DNA of 45,172 bases from a virus, in IMG/VR virus record IMGVR_UViG_3300009285_000020, positions 1-45,172 of that record; one strand, written 5' to 3'. The notes under the pieces are model-generated. The model made no database searches, was not told the origin of the DNA, and saw only the letters and a program-made list of their open reading frames with translations. Shown here piece after piece: positions 3,449-28,291 of this stretch. Both the position numbers and the translations under genes were made by a program. Numbering within the stretch: position 1 is the stretch's first letter; each line of letters opens with the position of its first letter.

Positions 3449-3817
3449 CTATGGCTCCTCCACGGGTTTTAAGCCCGTCGCCGTCAAAACCCTGTCGAAG
3501 TCGCACGCGGAGTTTGCCGCGAACCCCAGATTGCCGTCCGCTACCCGCCCTTGCGGATCGGATGTCTTGAGGATCGTCCACTTGACAGCCGCAGGAAGCC
3601 CCTGGAGCTTGTCCCTGAGCCTTAGCATCCTCCGGGCTGTCAGAACACCCGAAGCCGCGTAATGCGTCGCAGGAAGGCTCCCAGAGGCCGACAGGCGCGT
3701 TGTGAACGTGTCCCCTGCGTCGTCCTCGTCCCAGTGCCGCGCAGCCGCGTTCGCCGCTGCCTGAACCCCTTTGGGAACGATGATGATGAAGCGTGTGTAT
3801 CTCACGAGGTCCCCCAC
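3449..3817 (-). CDS. Hypothetical protein, 122 aa (last gene of the late block)
   Basis: Track ORF that overlaps the fibre gene end by 16 nt. Confidence 0.6.
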   Translation of the reverse strand: MGDLVRYTRFIIIVPKGVQAAANAAARHWDEDDAGDTFTTRLSASGSLPATHYAASGVLTARRMLRLRDKLQGLPAAVKWTILKTSDPQGRVADGNLGFAANSACDFDRVLTATGLKPVEEP

Positions 3818-5214
3818 TTGGCTCTTAGGTACGCCTCCACCTGCACCATCTCTGCCACACTCAGAAGCCGGTTGTAGATCAGAAGTTCGTGCAGGTAGTT
3901 CGGGTAAGCGTTGGCGGATGCGCCCCTGGCAAAAATCTGGTCGGTGGCGCTTGTCACCGTCGCCGGTGTGACCGCTTGCGTCTCATCCACCCCGTTGTAA
4001 CGGATGATGGCGCTCGAAGACCCCGACTCGTACTGCCAAGTGCCCCTGAACGCGGTGCTCGCGCCTATGATCGTGCTTCCCAGAACGATGGCTGTGGCGG
4101 CAAGGTTGATGAGCAACTTTTCCGAGAACTCGTAGCCAAACATGATAGCGCCCGCCGCCGAGCCTGCGGCAAGCGCCCTTGCTTGCGCACCCGCTGTGAC
4201 TTGGCATACCGCAAATGCGGTGAAAGGTGTCAAGCCGGACCCGGCATTGGCAATCGTGTACACGTCGTCCGTGCCGTCTGGCAACACCCCCGCAAGCCCG
4301 TTCTGCACTGCAACCTTGTAGATCGCCCTCTTGGAAGACGTGGCCTGCGAAAGATGCCGCGCGTTGCCCGACAGATCGTTCCAGGCGTTGACCGGATCGC
4401 CGTCGGATGGGTAGCTCGCAGGGATGCCCGTCGTGCTTGTAGGCACGCCGCCGAGCGTCGAGAAGTCGCTCGTGCCGGGTGTGTCTACCCGCGTTCCGTC
4501 TGCCTCGTTGAGCTTCCAGTAGTTCGTCAGGCTCGCGGTGAGCGCACTTGGCAAATCGGCATACTCGATGCCGCTTCCCCCGTTGTAAAGCTGAGCCACC
4601 TGCGCCGCTGAAAGAACCGCGCTCCAGAACCCCCATTCCGACATTGCCGCGTTGAGGAAGTTCGCTGGCGTCGAGTTCAAATCCGCGCCCATCCGGGTCT
4701 TGGGGCTGACAATCGCCGTGGGAGCCACCTTTGTCAGCGTCGCCGGTGTGCCCGCCGCCCCGTTGATGTATGGCGTAATGACGCCCGTCGCCTGTGCATA
4801 CGTGAACGCCAGGTGTGTCCACTCCCCCGTGGCCGGAGCCGTGACCGTTACTGTCTGTGTGTTCGTGGAATCGCTGGCGTTGACCAGATATTCCAGGTTC
4901 GGCGAGTTGTACCGGAGCCGGTAGTTGTACTGCCCGGCGACGTAAGGCGTCGCCGAAAGAGAACCGTCTGTAAGAAGCGTCGGCGTCCCCGAAAGGGTTG
5001 TGAACTTCACCCAACCGGCAATCGAGAAGTCCACAGCCCAGAGCGTAGAGTTCCCCGTCGCCTCCAAATACTGCGAACTCGCGCTGGCGAACAAACACGC
5101 CGCGTCCGGGGTGAGCGACGCAATGTTGCTCGCGTCCCACCAACCCCAAAGATTAGGTAAATCCTTGGGTTCAAACGGCTTGTTCCAAAGCAAGAGACGC
5201 TTAGATGGTGTCAT
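3802..5214 (-). CDS. Tail fibre / receptor-binding protein with two LamG (concanavalin-like) domains
   Basis: Two LamG-type signatures: FSIAGWVKF...LAFTY...YINGA...WSAVLSAAQVAQLYNGG, and FTAFAVCQV...ELLIYNRLLSVAEMVQVEAYLRAKWG. Confidence 0.8.
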   Translation of the reverse strand: MTPSKRLLLWNKPFEPKDLPNLWGWWDASNIASLTPDAACLFASASSQYLEATGNSTLWAVDFSIAGWVKFTTLSGTPTLLTDGSLSATPYVAGQYNYRLRYNSPNLEYLVNASDSTNTQTVTVTAPATGEWTHLAFTYAQATGVITPYINGAAGTPATLTKVAPTAIVSPKTRMGADLNSTPANFLNAAMSEWGFWSAVLSAAQVAQLYNGGSGIEYADLPSALTASLTNYWKLNEADGTRVDTPGTSDFSTLGGVPTSTTGIPASYPSDGDPVNAWNDLSGNARHLSQATSSKRAIYKVAVQNGLAGVLPDGTDDVYTIANAGSGLTPFTAFAVCQVTAGAQARALAAGSAAGAIMFGYEFSEKLLINLAATAIVLGSTIIGASTAFRGTWQYESGSSSAIIRYNGVDETQAVTPATVTSATDQIFARGASANAYPNYLHELLIYNRLLSVAEMVQVEAYLRAKWGTS

Positions 5215-24051: not shown

Positions 24052-24810
24052 CTATGTCAGGACTCCGTAAATGCCCCCGATGTCAATGAACGCTAGGCGT
24101 TCCGACCCCTTTTCTTCAATTGGGAGCAAGGCTCTCCTTTCGTAGAGCACCTTGTCTCCTGGAAAAACATCTTCCACATACTCGCCAACCGCAACAACAT
24201 AGGCAGAATCCTCCATCCGTCTCTTCATGGAATCGGGAAGTTCAATCCCACTTTTCGTCTTACCTTCCTTTTCTGGAAGTTCAACCAAAACGTTATCACC
24301 GAGCGGTCTGAATCTGTCCATCTTCGCATCTCTCACAGCTACTACGCTCTCATGCCAAGGTACATCAGTGGGACGGCCCCTCGCTACTCCACTTGCCCTG
24401 TATGGGCACACAATACCATACAGACGAACCTCGCTCCCCTCTTGGGGCTTATACCCGTCAAGCTCGAAACGATCCATGCGCTTGCCGTCGTCGGGATGCA
24501 CGAGCACAATATCTCCCGGCACAAGGAACCCATCCCCGAACGGGATAGGTTTTCCCCGGACTTCAGCGCACTGGTTGCGTTTATGGAGCTTATGGGGAGG
24601 GTAAAGCCGTCCGCAAGCCAAAACAACGCCCACACAGGGGCGCTTCCGCCTGCTTTCGAGGCCCGTGAGAATGATTCCCCCATCCGTTTCCTTCGGCCTT
24701 GGCAGAATCTCGACCGCGACATGCCCATCCAGCATTCTCAGTCGCTTAGACGCGCTTTCGCAATCAATGGACGCGGCTGACTCTAACCCTGTGCAGCGGA
24801 TGGGTCTCAT
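24052..24810 (-). CDS. Tandem GroES/Cpn10-like protein (two co-chaperonin domains)
   Basis: Domain 1: LRMLDGHVAVEILPRPKETDGGIILTG...GVVLACG...VPGDIVLV...ESVVAV. Domain 2: FRPLGDNVLVELPEKEGKTKSGIELPDS...YVVAVGEYV...PGDKVLY. ATG 24810 follows GGAGGA. Confidence 0.7.
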   Translation of the reverse strand: MRPIRCTGLESAASIDCESASKRLRMLDGHVAVEILPRPKETDGGIILTGLESRRKRPCVGVVLACGRLYPPHKLHKRNQCAEVRGKPIPFGDGFLVPGDIVLVHPDDGKRMDRFELDGYKPQEGSEVRLYGIVCPYRASGVARGRPTDVPWHESVVAVRDAKMDRFRPLGDNVLVELPEKEGKTKSGIELPDSMKRRMEDSAYVVAVGEYVEDVFPGDKVLYERRALLPIEEKGSERLAFIDIGGIYGVLT

Positions 24811-25093
24811 ATTTGTCAAGGTCCTCCAAGTCGTCTACTACGTAAGGGCCGCCTGAAAACGATTCGCCTTGGCACTCCCACTTCTTCCCAACCAGTTTGC
24901 ATATGAAGGCGTGCTTGCGGCCAGGGTTCGTTACATACCGGCACATCGTTTGAGTCTTGAGCACTGCTACCGGCACATCTTCTACAACAGGACTGCCTTT
25001 TGGGAGCTTTTCAAGCTCTTTGATAGCCCTGGCCTTCCTCAAACGGTCCCCTGCGGCCTTTCGGGCCTCTTCCGACATTGGCTTTCTTCCCAT
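24764..25093 (-). CDS. Hypothetical protein, 109 aa
   Basis: Track ORF with an AGGAGAAAGAA RBS directly after the terminase stop. Confidence 0.55.
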   Translation of the reverse strand: MGRKPMSEEARKAAGDRLRKARAIKELEKLPKGSPVVEDVPVAVLKTQTMCRYVTNPGRKHAFICKLVGKKWECQGESFSGGPYVVDDLEDLDKYETHPLHRVRVSRVH

Positions 25094-25102
25094 TTCTTTC
25101 TC

Positions 25103-26962
25103 CTACGTTCTGGCGATTCGAGTCGCTTTCCCCTGCCCAAAGTGCATAATGTTCTTCCGAACTTCGACCAAAACACTCTGATGTGCGTCGTTGCAATTGT
25201 GAACGAGTATGCCATTTGCGAAGAACTCATGTTCACCATCAACCGTTAAGTCGTACACGTTCGCGGTCCCATCGGGTGAGACGCCCCGCACAACGTTTAC
25301 CGCAAGTACGGGTGCAACTTGCAGCGGAAGTCTCAAACGAGTTCCCGCAAACCGTACACGTTCTGTTGGCTCCAATCGGCCTTTGGCTGCGTTGGTGCCC
25401 TTGCCGACATCGCATGGAACAGTACCGAGCCGCATTTCCTTTGGCCTCATAGTCAATCCCGCAAAAATCGCAACGCCTGATCCGAGTAGGTTGTTTCCCG
25501 AACTTGCAGCGAAGCGCATGGACACGATGCCATTCAATTCCTTCTGTGGACCCATGCCACGCTTTTGCGGCATCACGAGCGGCAGCAATGCCCTTCTTCC
25601 CATTCGCGGACAATTTCTCAAAATGCCTGCCGCTGAGATGGTCGAACGGCGAAAGGCACTCAAGATTTTCAAGCCGGTTGTCTGCGCAATCTTCGTTTTT
25701 GTGGTGGACGTGGGACCCTTCTGGGATTGGCCCGTTCGATTTCTCCCAAACATAGCGGTGCAGATATTCGCGCCTGCCGTCCACGTAACCTTTGAAGTAG
25801 ATACGATCCGATCTGCGAGGCGAATCTGGATACCGAACGAATCGGCTTTCGCCAACCCATATTTCCTCTGCGCCAATTCTGCTTTTCTTGGGTCTTCCAC
25901 CAGGCATGATAAAAGCATACCAGATTGAATGGCATCAGCGCGACTAAACTCCCCGTCAGCGTGAACCAGGTGGTTTGCGGTAACGCGGACGGTTTTGCCG
26001 TTGGATGCCAATACTTTTAGTACTGGCGCATTGTTCGCTGTCTTGCCAGACCATGAAACGCGCCTTAGCCCCTTGCGAGTCCACACCCTGTCGCCAACGG
26101 CGACACGTTCGATTGGAACATCCCCGCGCTCCGTAGCAACCAGCGACCCCTGGGCGAGACAATGGCTAAACATGTTCTTTACGGGCTTCAAATACACCAT
26201 TCCTGGCCCTGCTTCGTCATGCGCCTTCGACGGTCTAAGGCAATACGCGCCCCTCATGCCTTCCACCAGCACCGGGCACCCTTGCTCGCAGTAGATTACC
26301 CTTTGCTCCCACTTCGCTTCGTGATCGCCCTCCTGAGAAACCCAATCGGATAGCGCCCAAACTACCGCATCCTCTCTTTGTGGCCAATTGTTCGATATCC
26401 GCTTGATCTTGAAACCGCTTTGCTTGGCAATCTCGTAGGCGGACCGGCCTTCCGATCCACTCTTTGTCATAACGGTCTCATCGCCTACGTGGATCAAGTC
26501 CTGCCAAAATGCGGGAAGGCGCTCCTGCAACTTCTGACGCACAATTGGAGCAAACGTGCCCATTGCCATATTGGTCATCGGAGCAAGCTCAAACAGGAAA
26601 TGAATCTGCCCCTTTGGGGTGATCTGCGCTACTACCACCGCTGGCCGCAAGGTCATGCCGCAATCCCAACCGACGTAATATGTAGACTTTGGAATTAAAG
26701 GTATCGGTTTCTTGCGAAATGCAATTGGCGCATGGCGCTCGTACACGAAGTCCCTGAACACCGGATCGCCTTCAGCAATTGTCTCGTCCATCTCCATTTC
26801 CCTCAGCCATTCCGAGAGCGGTACGCCCCGCATGGCCTTTGCTTTCCACGCTGCGCCCTCCGGCGTGGCAGGGTCCTTGGACGGGTCTGCCGAGTAGTGA
26901 AGCCTGACGACCCTGGCCCCTTCCTGGGTCATGTAGGCATCGCATCCGTGCGGGAAGCTCAC
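25103..26962 (-). CDS. terL: Terminase large subunit, nuclease-domain cistron, interrupted by an intein (297 aa after predicted splicing)
   Basis: The N-extein has ARVVRLHYSADPSKD...YYVGWDCGMTLRPAVVVAQI, an RNaseH-like nuclease motif. The extein junction is ...KNMFSH|CNDAHQSVLV. GTG 26962 is GTGA-coupled to the upstream ORF. Confidence 0.85.
   Translation of the reverse strand: MSFPHGCDAYMTQEGARVVRLHYSADPSKDPATPEGAAWKAKAMRGVPLSEWLREMEMDETIAEGDPVFRDFVYERHAPIAFRKKPIPLIPKSTYYVGWDCGMTLRPAVVVAQITPKGQIHFLFELAPMTNMAMGTFAPIVRQKLQERLPAFWQDLIHVGDETVMTKSGSEGRSAYEIAKQSGFKIKRISNNWPQREDAVVWALSDWVSQEGDHEAKWEQRVIYCEQGCPVLVEGMRGAYCLRPSKAHDEAGPGMVYLKPVKNMFSHCLAQGSLVATERGDVPIERVAVGDRVWTRKGLRRVSWSGKTANNAPVLKVLASNGKTVRVTANHLVHADGEFSRADAIQSGMLLSCLVEDPRKAELAQRKYGLAKADSFGIQIRLADRIVSTSKVTWTAGANICTAMFGRNRTGQSQKGPTSTTKTKIAQTTGLKILSAFRRSTISAAGILRNCPRMGRRALLPLVMPQKRGMGPQKELNGIVSMRFAASSGNNLLGSGVAIFAGLTMRPKEMRLGTVPCDVGKGTNAAKGRLEPTERVRFAGTRLRLPLQVAPVLAVNVVRGVSPDGTANVYDLTVDGEHEFFANGILVHNCNDAHQSVLVEVRKNIMHFGQGKATRIART
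25196..26161 (-). mobile_element. Hint-type intein (322 codons) in the terL nuclease domain
   Basis: Block A CLAQGSLVAT, block B VRVTANHLVH, blocks F/G VYDLTVDGEHEFFANGILVHN, then +1 Cys. Boundary codons were checked on the sequence (TGT at 26159..26161, AAT at 25196..25198, TGC at 25193..25195). Confidence 0.85.
25239..25907 (-). CDS. HNH homing-type endonuclease (222 aa), encoded inside the intein in a different frame
   Basis: YLHRYVWEKSNGPIPEGSHVHHKNEDCADNRLENLE is an HNH_3-like motif, followed by two Zn ribbons (CDFCG..YCSMRC; CTVCG..CGKRC). The ORF frame differs from the intein frame (end coordinates 25907 vs 26962 differ mod 3). Confidence 0.8.
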   Translation of the reverse strand: MPGGRPKKSRIGAEEIWVGESRFVRYPDSPRRSDRIYFKGYVDGRREYLHRYVWEKSNGPIPEGSHVHHKNEDCADNRLENLECLSPFDHLSGRHFEKLSANGKKGIAAARDAAKAWHGSTEGIEWHRVHALRCKFGKQPTRIRRCDFCGIDYEAKGNAARYCSMRCRQGHQRSQRPIGANRTCTVCGNSFETSAASCTRTCGKRCAGRLTRWDRERVRLNG

Positions 26963-27219
26963 GCCTGGATCACCTTGCTTCGCTCTATGTCGAGCAGCCC
27001 TTTGAAGCGCCCTGATAGATGTTTGAGGATTATCAAGAGGCCCTGCATTTCATCGAGCGGTTCTTCGACGGGGCTCTCAAGAGGACTCCCGTCAAGTCCG
27101 ATAATCCTTGTCCTCGAAGGAATGATCCCGGAAGTCTGGCTCCCGCCGATGTGATGCTGGACAACAACCACAACCCGGTCTTCAAACTGAACCGGCGTCT
27201 GAATCTGCTGGATAGCCAT
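26959..27219 (-). CDS. Cpn10/GroES-like small protein, 86 aa, wedged between the terL cistrons
   Basis: PVQFEDRVVVVVQHHIGGSQTSGIIPS...PLDEMQGLLIILKHLSG...LLDIERSKVIQA follows the GroES pattern (PLgDRVlV..kT.gGIvlP..PLdVkvGD.V.f.kyaG..lil.e.DIlavi). ATG 27219 follows GGGGGG. Confidence 0.5.
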   Translation of the reverse strand: MAIQQIQTPVQFEDRVVVVVQHHIGGSQTSGIIPSRTRIIGLDGSPLESPVEEPLDEMQGLLIILKHLSGRFKGLLDIERSKVIQA

Positions 27220-27955
27220 AAACCCCCCGCGCCTTTTCCTTGATTGCGATCCACTCCCGGTTTGCGCTCGCATTGGCAATCGCTACCGCGTGTCCTCCCT
27301 TCTCACCAGGAGGACCTTGGCAGACGATATTGGCTTGGCCCCAAACTGCCTTCACCCTCGCGTAAAGCGAAAGCTCCTCGCACTTGGCCCGCTTCGCGCC
27401 GCCGCCCTGAAACGAATCGCGGTCGGAGTTTACTGCAATGAACATGGCTCCGTTCGGGAACACCAACTTGTCTAACCCCTGCTTGGCCGTGTTGCCTTCG
27501 GTAATAGCGTTAGGCAATCCCCAAGCGGGAAACCGCTTCTGGATGTCGTCGTAGATGAACCAGGACCGCCATACGAAGTCCTTTGCGCCACCCTTGCCCT
27601 CGTACTCCCTGCCACCGTCCAAAATGTCTCCGGGCTCAATCCCTACGTCCCATACGTCTAGAGCGCACATGATCCAAGAGATGATGAGACGCCGAGACTT
27701 GAACACGATGAATGGCTCACCGCCCGACTTTGCCATCCACCAGTTCCAAACGAGGAACCTTACGTACTCCTTTTTGGGAATCGGAACGGCTTGCCCAGTC
27801 GTTTCAAGCCTCGTGCGAACGACCTCGGTGAGGAACCGATACGCGGCCTGCCAAGAATCTTCCCCGTAAGGCATCGGCCAAAGTGGGCCGCGACTCTTCT
27901 CGAACATCCGGCCAATGTCGCCCTGCAAAAGCTCAAGCAATGCGGCGGGCTTCAT
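27182..27955 (-). CDS. terL: Terminase large subunit, ATPase-domain cistron (257 aa)
   Basis: Deviant Walker-A-like FIVFKSRRLIISW (lambda gpA KSARVGYS type), Walker-B-like AKCEELSLY, and motif-III-like IVCQGPPG. The ORF ends at TGA 27182..27184 where the lid/linker would begin. Confidence 0.65.
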   Translation of the reverse strand: MKPAALLELLQGDIGRMFEKSRGPLWPMPYGEDSWQAAYRFLTEVVRTRLETTGQAVPIPKKEYVRFLVWNWWMAKSGGEPFIVFKSRRLIISWIMCALDVWDVGIEPGDILDGGREYEGKGGAKDFVWRSWFIYDDIQKRFPAWGLPNAITEGNTAKQGLDKLVFPNGAMFIAVNSDRDSFQGGGAKRAKCEELSLYARVKAVWGQANIVCQGPPGEKGGHAVAIANASANREWIAIKEKARGVYGYPADSDAGSV

Positions 27956-27991
27956 GTCCGTAATCTATCTTTTCTTCCTGAGAATCGTAAA

Positions 27992-28291
27992 TCAATCTCT
28001 GACCCCCAATTGGAACGTGACGAATATCCGGCCCGGCCTGAGCACGCCTGTCATGCCTCGTAAATCACCCTCGTGCGCGTGCGTGCCTAATGTCAACCGA
28101 GCCCAACCATCTGAACCGATCCGCCCTGAGAGCCGAACCCCTGACACATCGCCTTCGACATCCCCGCCCCTGCCGACAACCATCCGGGCAGGCCAATTGC
28201 CCCAACGGCCCTCCCAGGACCCGGCATAAGGATTGACACCGCCGCCGCCGCAACCCGCGAGAACGAACACCAAAAGTAAAAGAACCCTCAT
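27992..28291 (-). CDS. Lipoprotein, 99 aa
   Basis: MRVLLLLVFVLAGC is a signal peptide with an LAGC lipobox. The ATG forms an ATGA overlap with the upstream stop. Confidence 0.7.
   Translation of the reverse strand: MRVLLLLVFVLAGCGGGGVNPYAGSWEGRWGNWPARMVVGRGGDVEGDVSGVRLSGRIGSDGWARLTLGTHAHEGDLRGMTGVLRPGRIFVTFQLGVRD

Follow-up and report, generated by a model that had tools for sequence, protein, structure and literature searches.

How a complete endonuclease gene comes to lie inside an intein, in a reading frame that the intein itself does not use, is the question raised by one locus of the viral record IMGVR_UViG_3300009285_000020 in IMG/VR. The whole stretch that was analysed, 45,172 nucleotides (nt), is referred to here as the window. 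The locus is terL, the gene for the large terminase subunit, whose nuclease-domain open reading frame (ORF; 25103..26962) contains an intein at 25196..26161, and within this intein a second ORF at 25239..25907 encodes an HNH endonuclease in another frame; the terL, intein and HNH features are all on the minus strand. An initial annotation of this DNA had offered two explanations, namely a separate, overprinted HNH cistron within a mini-intein whose linker must stay open, or two compensating 1-nt indels that conceal an ordinary in-frame HNH intein. Every test run on the sequences supports the first. The locus is probably a splicing-competent terL intein that carries, in its linker, a separately translated, overprinted HNH gene that would act in homing.

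Anatomy of the terL intein

The 619-amino-acid (aa) ORF, taken from the ORF list and from in-silico excision, comprises the N-extein (26162..26962), which ends in VKNMFSH, the 322-aa class-1 intein, running from Cys1 to a terminal His-Asn, and the C-extein from Cys+1 (CNDAHQS; 25103..25195, stop codon included). The extein limits come from motif inspection and the excision alignment. Pfam recognizes the intein twice in this ORF, as Hint_2 at aa 268–331 (37.4–37.6 bits against a cut-off of 28.4) and as Intein_splicing at aa 307–589. Its limits are Cys268 (codon 26159..26161) and Asn589 (codon 25196..25198), with Cys+1 directly after. The block A nucleophile is Cys1 (CLAQGS), the TxxH motif of block B is T61-A-N-H64, and block F/G reads VYDLTVDGEHEFFANGILVHN, with block G ending in ILVHN before the C. 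Cys1, T61 and H64 are invariant in the intein-family alignments A3 and A5, and H321 and N322 are likewise invariant in the alignments.

Structure prediction divides the intein into three parts. The N-terminal splicing domain with blocks A and B (intein aa 1–95; 25877..26161) was delimited with AlphaFold2 and Foldseek, and the C-terminal splicing domain with blocks F and G (aa 285–322; 25196..25309), which terminates in VYDLTVDGEHEFFANGILVHN, with AlphaFold2. Between them lies a linker (aa 96–284; 25310..25876) that is simply the HNH gene read with a +1 shift; it has no stops and is rich in serine and threonine (S/T-rich) and without any Pfam domain match, so that a canonical endonuclease domain in the frame of the intein was not found. 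In the AlphaFold2 model of the intein frame, predicted local distance difference test scores (pLDDT) exceed 90 for aa 1–80, all beta-strand, and for aa 301–322; they are 83 for aa 81–90 and 76–83 for aa 281–300, and fall below 50, with zero secondary structure, for aa 104–278. In Foldseek, the structured part matches the mini-inteins NpuDnaB (4o1r, TMt 0.83), gp41-1 (6qaz, 0.85) and also Mtu RecA, all within TMt 0.83–0.85 and with probability 1.00. The intein frame is thus predicted to fold as a mini-intein with an unstructured linker of some 180 residues. Judged from its sequence, terL of the window carries a class-1 intein with all splicing blocks, which would be expected to splice. Both halves of the intein sit on a single ORF, and in this respect the window does not have a split intein.

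Removing the intein in silico leaves 297 aa that are collinear with aa 264–554 of P0155, an intein-free TerL of 556 aa, at 40% identity (E = 3e-78) and with a gap-free junction, KNMFSH-CNDAHQ in the window and KNDFSH-VHDAKQ in P0155. Intein-free homologues read KNDFSH-VHDAKQY and KNMYSH-IADAIQY at the insertion site, where the hyphen marks the point of insertion; the corresponding intein-free terL sequence is AAGAACATGTTTAGCCAT followed by TGCAACGACGCACAT. The intein is inserted at the final catalytic motif in the nuclease domain of TerL (NMFSH-CNDA). Inteins typically insert at active-site motifs. Pfam, PHROGs and NCBIfam do not recognize the TerL exteins of the window phage, and their identity as TerL is therefore drawn from the homologues.

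The HNH gene in the second frame

The ORF that fills the linker (25239..25907) encodes 222 aa plus a stop codon. It lies in frame +2 (equivalent to −1) relative to the intein, as (26962−25907) mod 3 = 2. Its first codon lies 85 codons into the intein; its end, 15 codons short of that of the intein, falls within block F. The splicing blocks thus enclose a complete endonuclease ORF in another frame, and the frame of the intein is not interrupted by it. The product matches Pfam HNH_3 with 56.2 bits (cut-off 24.8; 2.6e-15) and phrog_15471, 'HNH endonuclease', at 3e-26. Its catalytic core, H68-H69...N77...N81...H90 (HVHHKNEDCADNRLENLECLSPFDH), is encoded at 25638..25706, and two zinc ribbons follow. 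The first, C146-x2-C149...C163-x3-C167 (25407..25472), has four invariant cysteines and weak treble-clef Pfam matches; in the second, C184-x2-C187...C202-x3-C206 (25290..25358), C184 and C187 are invariant and C202 and C206 are at least 90% conserved. In the alignment of 66 HNH sequences from which these figures come (A4), the invariant residues are H50, H68, H69, N77, N81, H90, C146, C149, C163, C167, C184 and C187. The AlphaFold2 model of the HNH ORF has a mean pLDDT of 91.8, and its best match in the PDB, a weak one, is the phage HNH homing endonuclease I-HmuI (1u3e).

The description given in the initial annotation thus holds throughout for the window: the intein within the TerL nuclease ORF is confirmed to the base by Pfam and by the motif coordinates, the blocks A, B and F/G and the Cys+1 are all present with their key residues invariant, the middle of the intein frame is free of motifs and stops and is predicted to be disordered, and the HNH_3 ORF with its two zinc ribbons has the length, start and end that were proposed.

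Conservation of the layout

The window sequence itself is reproducible. For the 1860-nt ORF, 11 further assemblies are identical and a twelfth carries a single-nucleotide polymorphism (SNP), and the 619-aa protein is found on more than 20 contigs from several Rifle groundwater samples and a Joint Genome Institute (JGI) sample, built with different assemblers. Random indel errors are ruled out, since copies from many assemblies are identical. A blastn search of 24800..28200 against 50,697 phage records gave zero matches, and comparisons were thus made at the protein level. The exact HNH sequence was not found in a collection of 15 billion proteins.

The overprinted layout recurs in at least 85 phage or prophage loci, with a guanine-plus-cytosine content (GC) that spans 0.30–0.70 and an offset that is always +2. 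First of all, six of six distant intein homologues have an HNH-containing open stretch of 167–266 codons in frame +2 of an open intein frame. These six are 27–52% identical to the window over the aligned parts and belong to different TerL families with different insertion sites; only Hint domains and an odd middle rich in serine, threonine and arginine are found in them, and their gene GC, where measured, is 0.52–0.69. Second, tblastn with the window HNH against GenBank phages gives matches inside the annotated terL coding sequence of four cultured phages, all offset by +2: Acinetobacter phage Highwayman, Tetrasphaera phage TJE1, Clostridioides (C.) difficile phage phiCDHM19, where the locus has a GC of 0.30, and Rhodobacteraceae phage LS06-2018-MD07. 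Third, a scan of IMG/VR seeded with the HNH alone, which could have yielded in-frame or free-standing copies, returned 390 relatives. The best 80 of these loci were classified with hidden Markov models (HMMs) of the HNH and of the N- and C-terminal Hint blocks; in 69 the intein is contiguous and the HNH at +2, another 6 are partial with the same offset, 5 are free-standing, with no Hint domain nearby, and none has the HNH in frame. The comparison with related terL inteins that had been proposed as a check thus shows the HNH outside the intein frame in every relative examined. Fourth, five contigs of metagenome-assembled genomes (MAGs), assigned to Simkania, Rhodobacteraceae, Gemmatimonas, Elusimicrobia and Dehalococcoidia, have the same layout; the genome-contig scan gave at least 15 loci with narrow search patterns, which provide no estimate of prevalence in cellular genomes. 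Finally, an HNH profile search of 5.8 billion proteins found 172 homologues below E = 1e-5, and the 120 that were listed include none with a Hint domain; apart from a few, they are 140–240 aa long.

The unit of intein and HNH is present in Terminase_3, Terminase_6 and unclassified TerL families. Most insertions across the family are in the TerL nuclease motif, either NH-[C/S]xDAxRY or DA-[C/S]RY, and a few are at Walker B or elsewhere. That the offset is constantly +2 suggests that the composite element arose once. The occurrence in unrelated TerL families, together with a block F/G that is shared, letter for letter, with a mini-intein of an unrelated TerL, argues for horizontal mobility of the unit. 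In the GenBank carriers, the HNH gene is unlabelled; the region is annotated as 'terminase large subunit' only or, in phiCD119, as odd fragments.

Selection on the two frames

The initial annotation had cautioned that freedom from stops is weak evidence in a genome of this composition. For the window alone this caution stands. When the window HNH is recoded with window codon usage, the intein frame is stop-free in 2.3% of trials, and an antisense ORF (25209..25928, plus strand, 239 aa) is open there as well. This antisense ORF was rejected as a gene; it has 1–11 stops in 10 relatives and no family match, and is evidently a spurious by-product of codon usage. Across the family, the caution does not hold, as conservation of the layout is much stronger evidence. 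None of the 74 non-redundant members whose start could be assigned has a stop in the intein frame, whereas a conservative synonymous shuffle within genes gives a mean of 2.4 expected stops. The probability of 0 stops is 1e-4 for Highwayman (HNH ORF GC 0.39) and 2.5e-4 for phiCDHM19 (HNH ORF GC 0.31), and the sum of log10 P over members is −118, which is not a true joint probability, as the members are related though highly diverged. Natural controls do have stops in the same frame, with 12 in the free-standing HNH gene of Acinetobacter phage BP10, 4 in that of Pseudomonas phage PAE1 and 14 in a split Vibrio copy. The only possible sources of stops in the intein frame are NTA and NTG codons of the HNH frame, which make up 3.2% of the HNH ORF compared with 9.4% in the genes of the window. 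The sequence comparisons thus indicate that the open intein frame is under selection, for which the family evidence is decisive and that from the window alone moderate.

What is conserved differs between the two frames. In 10 independent close pairs of relatives, substitutions in the linker region at HNH codon positions 1, 2 and 3 number 113, 87 and 284. The peak at HNH third positions, the outcome of a proposed check on substitution patterns across relatives, argues for purifying selection on the HNH frame. HNH position 3 is position 2 of the intein frame, where every change alters the amino acid. Over the same DNA in 11 members, the HNH-frame readings have a mean pairwise identity of 32% and the intein-frame readings one of 20%. 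Selection, as read from these patterns, is on the HNH amino acids in one frame and on the absence of stops alone in the other.

Proposed mechanism and role of the endonuclease

We propose that the endonuclease slot of the intein has been filled by a complete HNH_3 gene of the free-standing type, 222 codons in the −1 (+2) frame that would provide a core and two zinc ribbons. Ribosomes reading terL would pass straight through it and produce, from the shifted reading, a linker of about 190 residues that is free of stops, unstructured and S/T-rich. This linker would loop out of the Hint fold, and the intein would excise itself to restore TerL. Internal initiation at the ATG at 25907 would yield the HNH endonuclease of 25 kDa, which could then cut intein-free terL alleles of co-infecting relatives, with repair copying in the intein-plus-HNH unit, that is, homing. 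The HNH ORF would keep the intein frame open by avoiding NTA and NTG codons before codons that start with A or G.

Several points weigh against this proposal. There is no recognizable Shine-Dalgarno motif at the HNH ATG of the window, and expression may be weak or otherwise routed. The stop-free statistic for the window alone is moderate (P = 0.02–0.08), and the case depends on the family. The window population is clonal (1 SNP) and gives no test of selection within the population. Homologues were retrieved with seeds from the window itself and with short conserved patterns, and look-alikes may be favoured as a result. In structure, the HNH matches I-HmuI weakly (E = 0.018, probability 0.82, template modelling (TM) score 0.22–0.27). 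Finally, terL is interrupted a second time, at 26963..27181, and the route to a complete TerL is not fully explained.

The role of the HNH could also be a different one, in that it serves as a packaging accessory nuclease, as do HNH proteins that assist the terminases of cos phages, and is nested in terL by chance rather than for homing. Free-standing relatives are indeed found by terS, terL or portal genes, in BP10, PAE1, Exiguobacterium phage EauM-23 and Brevundimonas phage Poludnitsa, and zinc-ribbon HNH endonucleases are encoded beside the cos site and terminase genes in many phages, as one report states (PMC3592412). However, the HNH ORF fills exactly the endonuclease slot of the intein, and the unit occurs in unrelated TerL families and at several insertion sites, indicating mobility. 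Moreover, the close TerL homologues P0155 and P0156 have neither intein nor HNH, homologous mini-inteins exist that lack the HNH, and both the Pfam family, HNH_3, and the best structural match, the homing enzyme I-HmuI, are against it. We consider a packaging role unlikely.

Probable route of translation of the endonuclease

A start codon is found in 74 of 77 members, 69 of these being ATG. In the 63 loci that did not contribute to the profile, the position of the start is the exactly homologous codon in 27 and at most 2 codons off in 43. The HNH frame is closed upstream by a stop, the median distance from which to the profile match is 10.5 codons. Motifs resembling a Shine-Dalgarno sequence at proper spacing are enriched, with at least 4 nt in 54% compared with 18.5% in the background and at least 5 nt in 19% compared with 2%; clear examples are phiCDHM19, LS06-2018-MD07 and Vibrio phage 1.238.A. 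Slippery heptamers of the form X_XXY_YYZ at the junction, on the other hand, are absent from the window and present in 3 of 74 members, where about 7 hits are expected. As the starts are conserved, Shine-Dalgarno-like motifs are enriched and slippery sites are not, internal initiation appears to be the best-supported route to the HNH.

Programmed −1 frameshifting from the intein frame would instead give a fusion of N-extein, N-terminal intein part (IntN) and HNH, with no separate initiation. The HNH lies exactly in the −1 frame of the intein in every member, as this route would demand, and the window ATG without a Shine-Dalgarno motif would fit it too. The constant −1 offset is, however, equally explained by common descent of a composite element, and the scarcity of heptamers, the start at a homologous position and the roughly three-fold (at least 4 nt) to nine-fold (at least 5 nt) enrichment of Shine-Dalgarno-like motifs make frameshifting very unlikely.

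The HNH ORF might, alternatively, be an unexpressed, decaying relic, with the intein frame alone mattering. The same missing motif in the window could be read in this way, and two relatives are visibly decaying, namely phiCD119, in which the HNH is truncated and the intein frame contains a stop, and the locus L113, a decaying copy with one stop and a truncated HNH. Against this, the catalytic and zinc-binding residues are invariant, substitutions in the HNH frame show third-position periodicity, a full-length ORF with a start is kept in 74 of 77 members, and the fold of the HNH is predicted with confidence. A relic is thus highly improbable.

Two compensating 1-nt indels, whether from sequencing, assembly or recent mutation, are refuted as a disguise for an ordinary in-frame HNH intein, despite short homopolymer runs close to both frame junctions and the merely moderate improbability of the open linker in the window, by the 12 matching assemblies, by the +2 offset in every relative examined across the whole GC range, by zero in-frame Hint-HNH arrangements among the 120 listed protein matches and the 80 IMG/VR loci, and by the conserved start and upstream stop that the HNH ORFs have of their own.

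Related forms and origin

Other arrangements of the same parts exist today. A search of a protein collection with the intein profile, which covered at most 8000 word-sharing candidates, gave at least 19 matches, among them the mini-inteins P0141–P0148, which are closely related to the window intein and lack both HNH and linker. P0141 is at the same terL nuclease site, in an unrelated TerL of the Terminase_3 type, and has the block F/G identical to VYDLTVDGEHEFFANGILVHN of the window; P0147 is close to this site, and P0148 lies within a Mu-F-like head protein. In Vibrio phage 1.238.A (NC_055735.1, L026), the intein is split and an HNH of the same family lies between the halves, which share one frame, are separated by 14 stops and carry the annotations TerL and 'hedgehog/hint domain protein'. 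Lactobacillus phage CL2 (NC_028835.1, L111) also has a split intein with the same HNH family between its halves. Clostridium phage phiCD119 (NC_007917.1, L110, 715..2592) has a broken copy, annotated as 'ter2' and 'ORF3 hypothetical protein', in which the stop separates N- and C-terminal Hint blocks that share a frame, the truncated HNH is in +2, and ORF3 corresponds to the intein linker, block F/G and C-extein. The free-standing HNH genes beside packaging genes complete the series. Since mini, split and free-standing relatives all exist, the likely origin, as far as comparison of present forms can tell, is a free-standing HNH gene inserted into a mini-intein. The suggestion, made at the outset, that the overprinted arrangement is intermediate between contiguous and split inteins fits with the same HNH being found between split halves and on its own.

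Two observations on the genomes of relatives may be added here. The TerL of Vibrio phage 1.238.A has an apparent separate, in-frame intein of the LAGLIDADG type further upstream, seen by eye in the translation only. The contig of homologue P0007 (L019, 1..1417) has a gene with a LAGLIDADG_3 domain, which hints at a genome with many homing elements; its terL is preceded by a GTP cyclohydrolase I gene and followed by a DpdA gene, and these two suggest 7-deazaguanine DNA-modification genes.

Comparison with known systems

The initial annotation knew of no description of such an arrangement. An out-of-frame endonuclease in an intein is, in fact, already described for other endonuclease families, the first proposal of alternative-frame homing endonucleases (HENs) being credited to Gorbalenya 1998 (as cited in the consulted part of bioRxiv 10.64898/2026.09.14.751524). 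[quoted passage not shown] According to this portion, the endonuclease ORF there is also on the same strand, in frame 3 (equivalent to +2), between the splicing blocks; the intein frame is open and predicted to be unstructured, many cases are in terL, and the proposed origin is invasion of an intein by a free-standing HEN. The nucleases are different, however. The actinophage HEN, as described there, is IPR004211 (endonuclease VII-like) with its core at residues 1–67, whereas that of the window is HNH_3 with two zinc ribbons. The possibility that the two are the same was rejected, as the window HNH has no match to Pfam Endonuclease_7 even at E ≤ 10 and tblastn with two HNHs of its family at E ≤ 1e-8 did not recover any SEA-PHAGES phage that the preprint names. 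Moreover, the preprint's set is restricted to actinophages, whereas the HNH family of the window is found in phages of Proteobacteria, Firmicutes and Actinobacteria as well as in many from uncultured sources.

A second parallel is a cyanobacterial dnaX intein with a LAGLIDADG ORF in the +2 frame (Phillips, DeSimone & Gogarten, bioRxiv 10.64898/2026.09.14.751524). It shares, as described there, an overlapping +2 endonuclease ORF under purifying selection, relaxed constraint on the intein frame, relatives that are mini-inteins and a proposed secondary invasion. It differs in having LAGLIDADG rather than HNH, a cellular dnaX rather than a phage terL as host gene, and another intein lineage. The 'hidden' HNH in the DNA methylase of mycobacteriophage ShiLan (Arsenault et al., Genes 2025, PMC11855218) is likewise overprinted, the insertion around it having no stops in the host frame, and translation of the internal ORF is an open question in both systems. 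The ShiLan insertion, on the other hand, has no detectable splicing domains and stays in the mature protein, whereas the window has complete flanking Hint blocks.

Fractured genes (Dassa et al., Nucleic Acids Research (NAR) 2009, PMC2677866) also have an endonuclease gene of the free-standing type between intein halves, and their exact layout is found in two relatives with the HNH family of the window, Vibrio phage 1.238.A and Lactobacillus phage CL2. The window intein differs in being one continuous ORF, in which splicing would be in cis; the endonuclease family of Dassa et al. is VSR-like and not HNH, according to bioRxiv 10.1101/2025.01.02.630785. Finally, inteins of the canonical bifunctional kind, among them the rare ones with an in-frame HNH (Dalgaard et al. 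1997, cited by the same 2025 preprint), share the Hint blocks and an endonuclease between blocks B and F. Their endonuclease is a domain of the intein polypeptide, whereas the window HNH would be a separate polypeptide from another frame, and an in-frame relative of its family was not found among the 120 listed protein matches or the 80 IMG/VR loci. The HNH_3 family in terL inteins appears to be undescribed in the literature searched, which was a limited library.

The second interruption of terL and neighbouring genes

The ATPase domain of TerL is encoded by a separate ORF (27182..27955, minus strand; 257 aa), homologous to aa ~30–256 of full-length TerL. Full-length homologues have 530–580 aa, and the ATPase ORF and the 619-aa ORF are collinear with them and in the same frame as each other. 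The two halves of terL are separated by about 220 nt (26963..27181, minus strand) with 4 in-frame stops. Small ORFs span this gap; that on the minus strand encodes 86 aa and that on the plus strand (27019..27243) 74 aa. Of the homologues of the ATPase ORF, nearly half have a length of about 240–280 aa and end at the same point, a pattern that suggests a recurrent split or insertion at the linker between the ATPase and nuclease domains of TerL. An intron or structured RNA in 26963..27181 was considered and rejected; Rfam at E ≤ 1 gave only one chance snoRNA match, and RNA folding gives a z-score of −1.4.

A 255-aa protein (24052..24819, minus strand) is encoded two genes downstream of terL, directly upstream of the portal gene. 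A GroES/Cpn10 co-chaperonin domain makes up its C-terminal ~90 residues (Pfam Cpn10 in the precomputed annotation; PHROG 9e-17). Elsewhere in the window, the nested pair 3983..5149 within 3802..5214, both on the minus strand, had been cited as an instance of a long spurious alternative-frame ORF. This appears to be correct, in that the inner 388-aa ORF has no family match while the outer one is a PHROG virion structural protein (5e-11), and the pair is probably not a second overprint.

Implications

The overlap of HNH and intein provides a clean case in which one frame is selected for its sequence and the other for being stop-free only, and it should be useful for testing methods that detect overlapping genes. 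The gene itself is missed by standard gene callers. The associated HNH enzymes are candidate site-specific nucleases against terminase genes. For the intein, a linker of ~190 residues would, from the predicted structure, mean that the Hint fold of the window intein tolerates large unstructured inserts.

It is possible, though we hold this tentatively and with more doubt than confidence, that these loci are the first recognized large, cross-phylum family of inteins in which an overprinted, separately translated HNH is the homing endonuclease. The series of living forms would then capture gain and loss of the endonuclease, and the overlap may couple the two products; if so, terL ribosomes pass over the HNH start site, and synthesis of the HNH could be throttled by translation of terL. 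The series of mini, overprinted, split and free-standing forms also bears on the model in which splicing came first and the endonuclease invaded later, and on the origin of split inteins.

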